This document shows, in pieces, positions 13,005 to 13,070 of a stretch of DNA of 64,000 nucleotides. Position 1 is the stretch's first letter. Every line of letters begins with the position of its first letter. The DNA is from a virus. Lineage: Duplodnaviria; Heunggongvirae; Uroviricota; Caudoviricetes. A program made the position numbers and the translations under genes. The notes under the pieces are model-generated. The model had not been told where the DNA came from. It was given only the letters and a program-made list of their open reading frames with translations, and ran no database searches. The stretch lies in the IMG/VR virus record IMGVR_UViG_2529292922_000010. One strand, given 5' to 3'.

Positions 13005-13021
13005 ACCTTATGGATTGCTCT
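13005..13021 (+). promoter_or_regulatory. C1-repressor operator-like site
   Basis: ATTGCTCTAATAAAAAA (14/17), plus orientation. Confidence 0.45.
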
Positions 13022-13044
13022 AATAAAAAACGTGATGAGTGTAC
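13017..13044. terminator. 28-bp palindrome with A/T runs; bidirectional terminator-like or regulator site
   Basis: AAAACGTGATG-AGTGTA-CATCACGTTTT, perfect 11-bp arms. Confidence 0.4.
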
Positions 13045-13053
13045 ATCACGTTT

Positions 13054-13070
13054 TAAAAATATGGAATTAT
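13054..13070 (-). promoter_or_regulatory. C1-repressor operator-like site
   Basis: Minus strand ATTGCTCTAATAATTCC (14/17); inverted relative to site at 13005. Confidence 0.45.

Follow-up and report, generated by a model that had tools for sequence, protein, structure and literature searches.

Results

Layout of the pmgQ–pmgR spacer

The window, by which we mean the whole 64-kb stretch of DNA analysed here, belongs to a P1/P7-like plasmid prophage and is ~98% identical to P1. In local alignment it corresponds to the reverse complement of P1 from ~90.6 kb downwards, with several segments replaced; the stretches at 4060-4944, 5287-10190, 24302-25399, 33137-35400 and 43300-43994 are without counterpart in the aligned P1 half. 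The closest complete relative found is the 96-kb E. coli IncY plasmid pMB9698_1, where ead/Ea22-like and DUF proteins are encoded in the segment at 5-10 kb. The window does not reach the c1 gene, whose product in this relative is WP_000611656.1. A search with Rfam 15 at the gathering score returned six matches in the window (sok, C4, c4-a1b1 and three tRNAs), none of them near position 13000; the C4 antisense RNA with its a1/b1 targets (immI region, 47151-47357) and the three tRNA genes (24221-26447) are as expected for a P1-type genome. The P1 (AF234172) and P7 (AF503408) records served as reference annotations, and P1 features were transferred to the window by offset.

The site lies between two minus-strand genes, as a first-pass annotation of this DNA had stated: pmgQ (hdmD; 13081-13782), whose predicted glycosyltransferase-like product of 233 aa is 96-98% identical to P1 PmgQ and P7 HdmD, and pmgR (shtA; 12781-12999), which encodes 72 aa. 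With its stop codon at 13081-13083, pmgQ closes the upstream pmgN-pmgO-pmgP-ppp-pmgQ operon, at whose head sits the C1 operator Op83 (Oppp; 15780-15796, plus strand). Deletion analysis has shown pmgR to be an essential morphogenetic gene of P1 (PMC9024508); it is the first gene of the C1-controlled pmgR-pmgS unit, whose second gene, pmgS (shtB; 11517-12779, minus strand), encodes 420 aa. In the gene table distributed with the closest complete plasmid (L214, NZ_CP103469.1), no CDS is given for the 72-aa pmgR at 74920-75222. A Shine-Dalgarno-like AAGGTG, read from the sequence, stands 4 nt upstream of the pmgR ATG (13004-13009, minus strand), and a terminator scan places a strong hairpin of the intrinsic-terminator type followed by T8 at the end of the pmgR-pmgS unit (11469-11497, minus strand), which serves below as a comparator.

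Read along the gene strand, the 81-nt spacer runs TAA-T-ATTGCTCTAATAATTCC-ATATTTTT-AAAACGTGATG-TACACT and, after the TACACT loop, CATCACGTTTT-TT-ATTAGAGCAAT-CCATAAGGTGCACT-ATG. It holds two nested perfect inverted repeats: an outer one with arms of 13 nt each (13014-13026 and 13067-13079) and 40 nt between them, and an inner one with arms of 11 nt each (13027-13037 and 13044-13054) around a 6-nt loop. The inner repeat is the palindrome with perfect 11-bp arms that had been described before, and it is indeed one perfect inverted repeat, at 13027-13054. All letters quoted in the first-pass annotation are present, whereas its coordinates are ~9 nt off: ATTGCTCTAAT lies on the plus strand at 13014-13024 and its inverse at 13069-13079, not at 13060-13070. 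Because the right-hand copy had been placed 9 nt too far left, the interval 13005-13070 truncates the right-hand site.

Sequence versions used for comparison

The 3 kb around the site are 98% identical to phages P1, P7, SJ46 and RCS47, and the 66-bp cassette that reaches from operator to operator is 100% identical to that of P1 and P7; across the pmgQ-pmgR cassette region, the sole two base differences between the window and P1 lie between Op86b and the Shine-Dalgarno sequence. A scan of IMG/VR viral contigs with PmgQ recovered 80 loci with 97-100% PmgQ identity; these and the reference phages are too close to be decisive, but they supply ~15 micro-variants. Scanning genome contigs by PmgQ alignment gave two near-identical loci only. 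When viral contigs were scanned for the pattern of T6 plus operator, a paired operator was present in 6 of 121, the rest being mostly chance AT-rich matches, and a metagenome scan yielded one JK004-like version and one P1 variant. Five divergent versions were available for comparison: Cronobacter phage JK004 (78% PmgQ identity), the Salmonella Newport plasmid CP140745 (72%), the IMG/VR contigs L088 and L162, and the metagenome contig L210. Phage D6 gave no match by tblastn with PmgQ or PmgS. The 66-nt layout is shared by all five divergent versions, and neither operator is lost in any of them. The alignment used throughout, A2, comprises 20 distinct natural sequence versions.

The inverted flanking sites are catalogued C1 operators

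By position and sequence, the inverted sites are operators of the phage P1 C1 repressor that are already catalogued: Op86a (OpmgRa or Op(sht[a]); ATTGCTCTAATAATTCC) at 13063-13079 on the minus strand, and Op86b (OpmgRb or Op(sht[b]); ATTGCTCTAATAAAAAA) at 13014-13030 on the plus strand, inverted relative to Op86a. The P1 record describes OpmgRa as a monovalent C1-controlled operator, formerly Op86a, that controls expression of pmgR and pmgS, and lists OpmgRb as 'former Op86b' at what is 13014-13030 (plus strand) in the window; in the P7 record the same two sites are annotated as Op(sht[a]) and Op(sht[b]). The C1 operator consensus is the asymmetric 17-mer ATTGCTCTAATAAATTT, and 22 operators have been reported in P1 (PMC8546580). 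Op86a and Op86b each agree with it at 14 of 17 positions, the invariant first 13 included, and the outer 13-nt arms are the 5' parts of these two asymmetric 17-bp sites. What had been called operator-like flanks in the first-pass annotation can therefore be named, and the compound control element that it suggested finds its counterpart in the two C1 operators and the predicted promoter PpmgR annotated there. A full-text literature search returned nothing relevant on Op86 or other C1-controlled operators by name.

With up to one mismatch allowed, the window contains 10 copies of the operator 11-mer where 1.6 would be expected, and 0 of 100 shuffles reach this number. The further copies are Op94, Op88, Op82, Op72a, Op68 and three sites at 43988-47434, and the complete relative pMB9698_1 carries 18 C1-type operator sites. 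The operator-like site ATTGCTCTAATCTGGAG (43988-44004, minus strand) has its first 11 nt in common with P1 Orlf/Op55. Homology to P1 ends exactly at 43994, which is also the end of the conserved 11-mer, so that a mosaic junction apparently lies inside a C1 operator. The 0.7-kb segment at 43300-43994 replaces P1 rlfA-rlfB-pmgF and contains a hok/sok module (Rfam sok, 43525-43699).

The spacing of the two operators, 49 bp from centre to centre and 32 bp from edge to edge, is constant in all lineages. Such constancy would suit a pair of convergent operators that act by C1-mediated looping or bridging, with the palindrome as a mere spacer or a cruciform-prone hinge, and looping mediated by C1 has been described for the c1 operators. 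The 'loopometer' paper tested P1 RepA, not C1. The constant spacing is, however, equally well explained by a hairpin and a promoter between the operators, and a pure spacer needs neither the compensatory stem changes nor the invariant T-run described below, which makes looping as the main function very unlikely.

The 3' halves of the two operators differ in how they vary. In alignment A2 the 3' positions of Op86a appear as CC, CA, TC or TT, whereas positions 12-17 of Op86b are all A, a feature unique to Op86b among 15 annotated P1 operators, and these columns are invariant in the 20 variants. On the gene strand the same six positions form a run of six T (13025-13030, minus strand; alignment columns 50-55). 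The invariance of this run while the Op86a equivalents vary, together with the all-A end found only in Op86b, suggests a second constraint on the 3' half of Op86b, namely a U-tract in the transcript; overlap with this U-tract may account for the unusual 3' end of the operator.

The palindrome has the features of a terminator on the gene strand

What lies between the operators? On the gene strand, the hairpin starts 27 nt past the pmgQ stop codon and has TTTTTT behind it. In the gene-sense RNA, the 5' arm AAAACGUGAUG (13044-13054, minus strand) and the 3' arm CAUCACGUUUU (13027-13037, minus strand) enclose the loop TACACT (13038-13043, minus strand), which is TATCAT or TATTAT in relatives. The predicted energy of the sense stem-loop is -13.4 kcal/mol and that of its core -8.5 kcal/mol, with UUUUUUAUU following; the fold of 101 nt has a z-score of -5.7.

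The pairing of both arms is kept in relatives although their letters change. The stem reads AAAACGTGATG/CATCACGTTTT in the window, AAAACATGGTG/CACCATGTTTT in CP140745 and L162, and AA(A/G)GCATGGTG/CGCCATGTTTT in JK004, L088 and L210. Pairing in the inner helix amounts to 97.7% over the 20 versions. Of its 11 pairs, two carry substitutions in both partners (G-C to A-U in one, A-U to G-C in the other) and six vary through G·U only; the non-Watson-Crick cells that are wobble-compatible number 13 on the sense strand versus 4 on the antisense strand. All these counts go back to few independent evolutionary events. Both compensatory pairs are found in one and the same set of five related sequences and perhaps represent only one or two such events. 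One base pair is broken in each of five singleton variants (L023, L031, L055, L080 and L209).

The hairpin had initially been proposed as a bidirectional terminator. In the gene direction this reading holds up well, but the second direction finds little favour. In P1-type genomes an A-run precedes and a T-run follows the stem, and the plus-strand hairpin is as stable as that of the sense strand (-13.4 kcal/mol), so that a stop for antisense transcription might be expected as well. Across all lineages, however, the sense hairpin keeps within -13.4 to -14.0 kcal/mol, whereas the antisense hairpin is destabilised to as little as -5.8 kcal/mol in the JK004/L088/L210 lineage. Past the stem, the plus strand offers only TTTT before AAAAA sets in, and no gene or annotated promoter on that strand is directed into the site. 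We scored both strands with a d'Aubenton-Carafa-type score that was re-implemented with ViennaRNA energies and whose values are approximate: the sense strand reaches +10.7 to +13.6 (+10.7 in the window), the antisense strand -18 to -60. With only the minus strand scoring as a terminator, termination in both directions is extremely unlikely.

The same measure points to limits in strength. The comparator hairpin after pmgS (11469-11497) scores +39, and the short AT-rich core of the palindrome, together with a d-score so far below this value, implies that termination may be only partial. A generic consensus terminator scan of the window did not list the palindrome, likely because four of the six T are taken up by the maximal stem: with the A/T pairs counted as part of the stem, T accounts for only 4 of the 8 bases that follow. 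The P1 GenBank record has no terminator annotated here, nor anywhere in the 45-kb half examined. In the literature searched, we found no published 3'-end, transcription start or footprint data for the site. Taken together, the palindrome is most likely a unidirectional intrinsic terminator after pmgQ, probably of moderate efficiency, and the features of the T-run described above point to a U-tract that doubles as the 3' end of Op86b.

Termination is not the only role that a stable RNA structure could play. The stem-loop might chiefly be an RNA-level element of read-through transcripts, such as an RNase III processing site or a 3'-end stabiliser, in which the inner stem and the paired operators would form an interrupted helix of 24 bp that uncouples the fates of the pmgQ and pmgR mRNAs. 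The outer 13-nt arms are indeed paired in the minimum-free-energy fold of both strands (-27.7 kcal/mol), and the outer helix is 98.5% paired across variants. Yet 10 of its 13 pairs never vary and the compensatory changes number 0, so that this pairing is fully explained by conservation of the two C1 sites; the outer 3' arm, moreover, is transcribed only once the polymerase has passed the U-tract. We regard an RNA element of either form, the processing or stabilising site and the long interrupted helix alike, as improbable, and retain the terminator as the preferred reading of the hairpin.

The palindrome in its genome and as a possible protein site

A perfect dyad of this length is also what a dimeric DNA-binding protein could recognise, and the first-pass annotation had accordingly raised a second regulator acting between the operators. 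Such dyads are nothing exceptional in this genome but typical of its hairpins: at ~10 distinct places the window contains a perfect hairpin with at least 11 bp per arm and a loop of 3-8 nt, where 0.18 would be expected under a first-order Markov model. Like the operator repeat, the palindrome is no product of chance. The others mostly show the layout of A-run, stem and T-run found in terminators, and one is the parS palindrome. The search for further copies of the motif proposed alongside the second regulator returned one copy in the window and, across 19 P1-type phage records, a single location in each genome, a uniqueness that had been associated with a simple terminator; in the complete 96-kb relative, no second dyad was found with at most one mismatch per half-site and spacers of 0 to 15.

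Two other hairpins of the region deserve mention. Between Op88 (10921-10937) and the next minus-strand gene lies a strong terminator-like hairpin (10861-10893) with a T-run on the plus strand only, into which no plus-strand gene runs; according to the P1 record, this stretch shares 96-98% identity with the DNA that lies downstream of hsd loci on plasmids. A weak palindrome with a terminator-like hairpin, GTTGTGATGACCTCACAGC then ACGTTTTTTT, is found on the minus strand at 12645-12667, ~110 nt inside pmgS; it is 3 mismatches away from the palindrome motif and probably a chance occurrence.

A dimeric regulator, encoded by phage or host, would be in keeping with the perfect 11-bp dyad symmetry seen in P1-type genomes and with the half-site 8-mer ACGTGATG, which occurs 7 times in the complete relative against 2.9 expected. 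This half-site excess is paralleled by a general excess of GTGATG (94 versus 53), and we read it as a composition effect. The stem itself is not conserved (CGTGATG becomes CATGGTG), although the adjacent C1 sites are; in JK004, L088 and L210, 2 of the 11 positions no longer match in the DNA dyad, and these form G·U in the sense RNA only. With a stem that changes by compensatory and wobble substitutions next to fixed operators, and a motif present as a single copy at any spacer from 0 to 15, the second regulator has lost its appeal, and we consider it highly improbable.

Two specific sites were tried and rejected. The CRP consensus is TGTGA-N6-TCACA. The palindrome instead has GTGA-N10-TCAC, so the spacing is wrong, and the GTGA/TCAC halves are lost in relatives. 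Compared with the five annotated P1 late promoters, the palindrome has no conserved match to the -22 box AAGTGACTT.

Candidate promoters of pmgR

The P1 record annotates PpmgR as a predicted sigma-70 promoter with the -35 hexamer TTGCTC (13073-13078, minus strand) and the -10 hexamer TAAAAC (13050-13055, minus strand), the latter within the 5' arm of the hairpin. With a simple hexamer position weight matrix (PWM), TTGCTC-17-TAAAAC scores 4.0 bits; by chance alone, a score this high turns up once every 84 nt. The sixth position of this -10 is C rather than T in every lineage, the hexamer reading TAAAAC, TAAAGC or TGAAGC. Calibrated on the other annotated P1 promoters, the same matrix gives most of them 5.8-10.3 bits, with P1coi at 3.1 at the coordinate used. 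A consensus promoter scan found no promoter at the pmgR spacer.

In the PWM scan, the best-scoring candidate in five of five lineages uses the hairpin loop as -10. Positions T1, A2 and T6 of the loop are invariant (TACACT, TATCAT or TATTAT), and the corresponding -35-like hexamer, TTCCAT in the window (13061-13066, minus strand), which would overlap the last 4 nt of Op86a, reads TTTACT, TTTAAT, TTCATT or TTCAAT in relatives. TTCCAT-17-TACACT scores 5.2 bits in the window, which is not significant, and 7.4-9.2 bits in relatives. In the P1 record an operator abuts or overlaps the -35 from upstream at Plpa and Pdmt too. As a working hypothesis from sequence comparison, the annotated TAAAAC would be a poor and poorly conserved candidate and the loop a better one. 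A plus-strand promoter that takes TTGCTC of Op86b as its -35 was also considered and rejected; its -10 would be AGTGTA or ATGATA.

The position of the promoter decides what the hairpin would do to pmgR. Were transcription to begin further upstream, for example with AATAAT inside Op86a as -10, the hairpin would be part of the 5' leader and could act as an attenuator of pmgR. Candidates with AATAAT as -10 do reach 5.6-6.6 bits in two divergent lineages, but the matching -35 falls into the coding end of pmgQ and is unconserved, the best such candidate in the window scores 4.3, and the loop-centred one is higher in all five lineages. An attenuator is accordingly scarcely probable. We instead infer a transcription start of pmgR at about 13043 for the annotated promoter or about 13031 for the loop-centred one, that is, inside or after the hairpin.

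Discussion

The reading that we consider quite probable is that the 66-bp cassette superimposes a pair of C1 operators, a terminator stem-loop and a C1-repressible pmgR-pmgS promoter. In this arrangement, Op86a stands directly after the pmgQ stop codon and Op86b just upstream of the pmgR ribosome-binding site, the two sites facing each other as asymmetric 17-bp targets that the phage immunity repressor C1 would bind. Between them, the gene-sense stem-loop, with a maximal stem of 11 bp and a G/C-containing core of 7 bp, would act together with U6 as a Rho-independent terminator and end transcripts arriving from the upstream Op83-controlled pmgN-pmgO-pmgP-ppp-pmgQ operon; that transcripts actually terminate here is what we infer from the conserved structure. 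The C1-repressible pmgR-pmgS promoter would be embedded in the same stretch. If transcription starts inside or after the hairpin, at ~13043 (annotated) or ~13031 (loop-centred), the pmgR transcripts would lack the 5' arm and so escape the terminator. With upstream transcripts terminated and its own transcripts spared, expression of pmgR-pmgS would depend on its own promoter, and in the lysogen C1, presumably occupying both flanking operators, would shut this promoter off. CRISPRi data from P1 are uninformative on whether pmgR depends on upstream transcription, because the knock-down of pmgR was a false negative.

A more daring version of this model takes the hairpin loop as the true -10 of pmgR, with a -35 that overlaps the 3' end of Op86a, so that four functions would share 66 bp: termination of the upstream operon, a promoter whose transcripts begin within the terminator and thereby avoid it, and the two facing C1 operators, one of which would also supply the U-tract. 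We put this forward only tentatively and rather doubt it as it stands. Op86a would then cover roughly -48 to -32 and Op86b roughly +2 to +18, and the two would clamp the core promoter near -35 and +2.

How does the cassette compare with known systems? Op86a, Op86b and PpmgR of P1 and the two sites of P7 have the same position, orientation and 66-bp sequence as in the window; the operators themselves are no different, while the hairpin between them is unannotated in both records. The bivalent C1 operators of P1 (Op72ab at ban and Op99ab at c1) likewise combine two inverted 17-bp sites with one promoter. There, however, the sites are offset by 11 bp and overlap in a single imperfect palindrome, whereas Op86a and Op86b stand 32 bp apart with a terminator hairpin and a core promoter between them.

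Like the Rho-independent terminators of enterobacteria and their phages, the palindrome is a stem-loop, here with a 6-nt loop, that is directly followed by U6 and located just past a stop codon. It falls into the same class as some nine other perfect hairpins of the window, and its pairing has been preserved through compensatory and wobble substitutions. It differs from canonical terminators in its AT-rich stem and modest predicted strength, in a U-tract that also makes up half of a repressor operator, and in the next promoter that is embedded in the hairpin. With the late, Lpa-dependent promoters of P1 it has a short dyad and a -10-like hexamer in common. These promoters, however, carry a -22 inverted-repeat box (AAGTGACTT or AAATGACTA, AAGTTACTT, ATGTGACTT, TAGTCATTT) and a -10 that follows the box after ~4 nt in four of five cases (the distance is longer in LPhot), whereas the palindrome has no match to the box, is unconserved in relatives and holds its -10-like hexamer inside the dyad, not after it.

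Much of this control region is not new. GenBank has listed the operators and a predicted promoter in its P1 and P7 entries for two decades, and operon boundaries are routine places for a terminator. What is new here is confined to the unannotated terminator and a possible reassignment of the pmgR -10.

Within these bounds, the hairpin would explain how pmgR, an essential head-completion gene, is insulated from the upstream operon and left under the control of C1 only. If the loop is indeed the -10, this would correct a promoter that has been annotated since 2004, and the cassette would represent a compact natural design for an insulator that combines terminator, promoter and operator.
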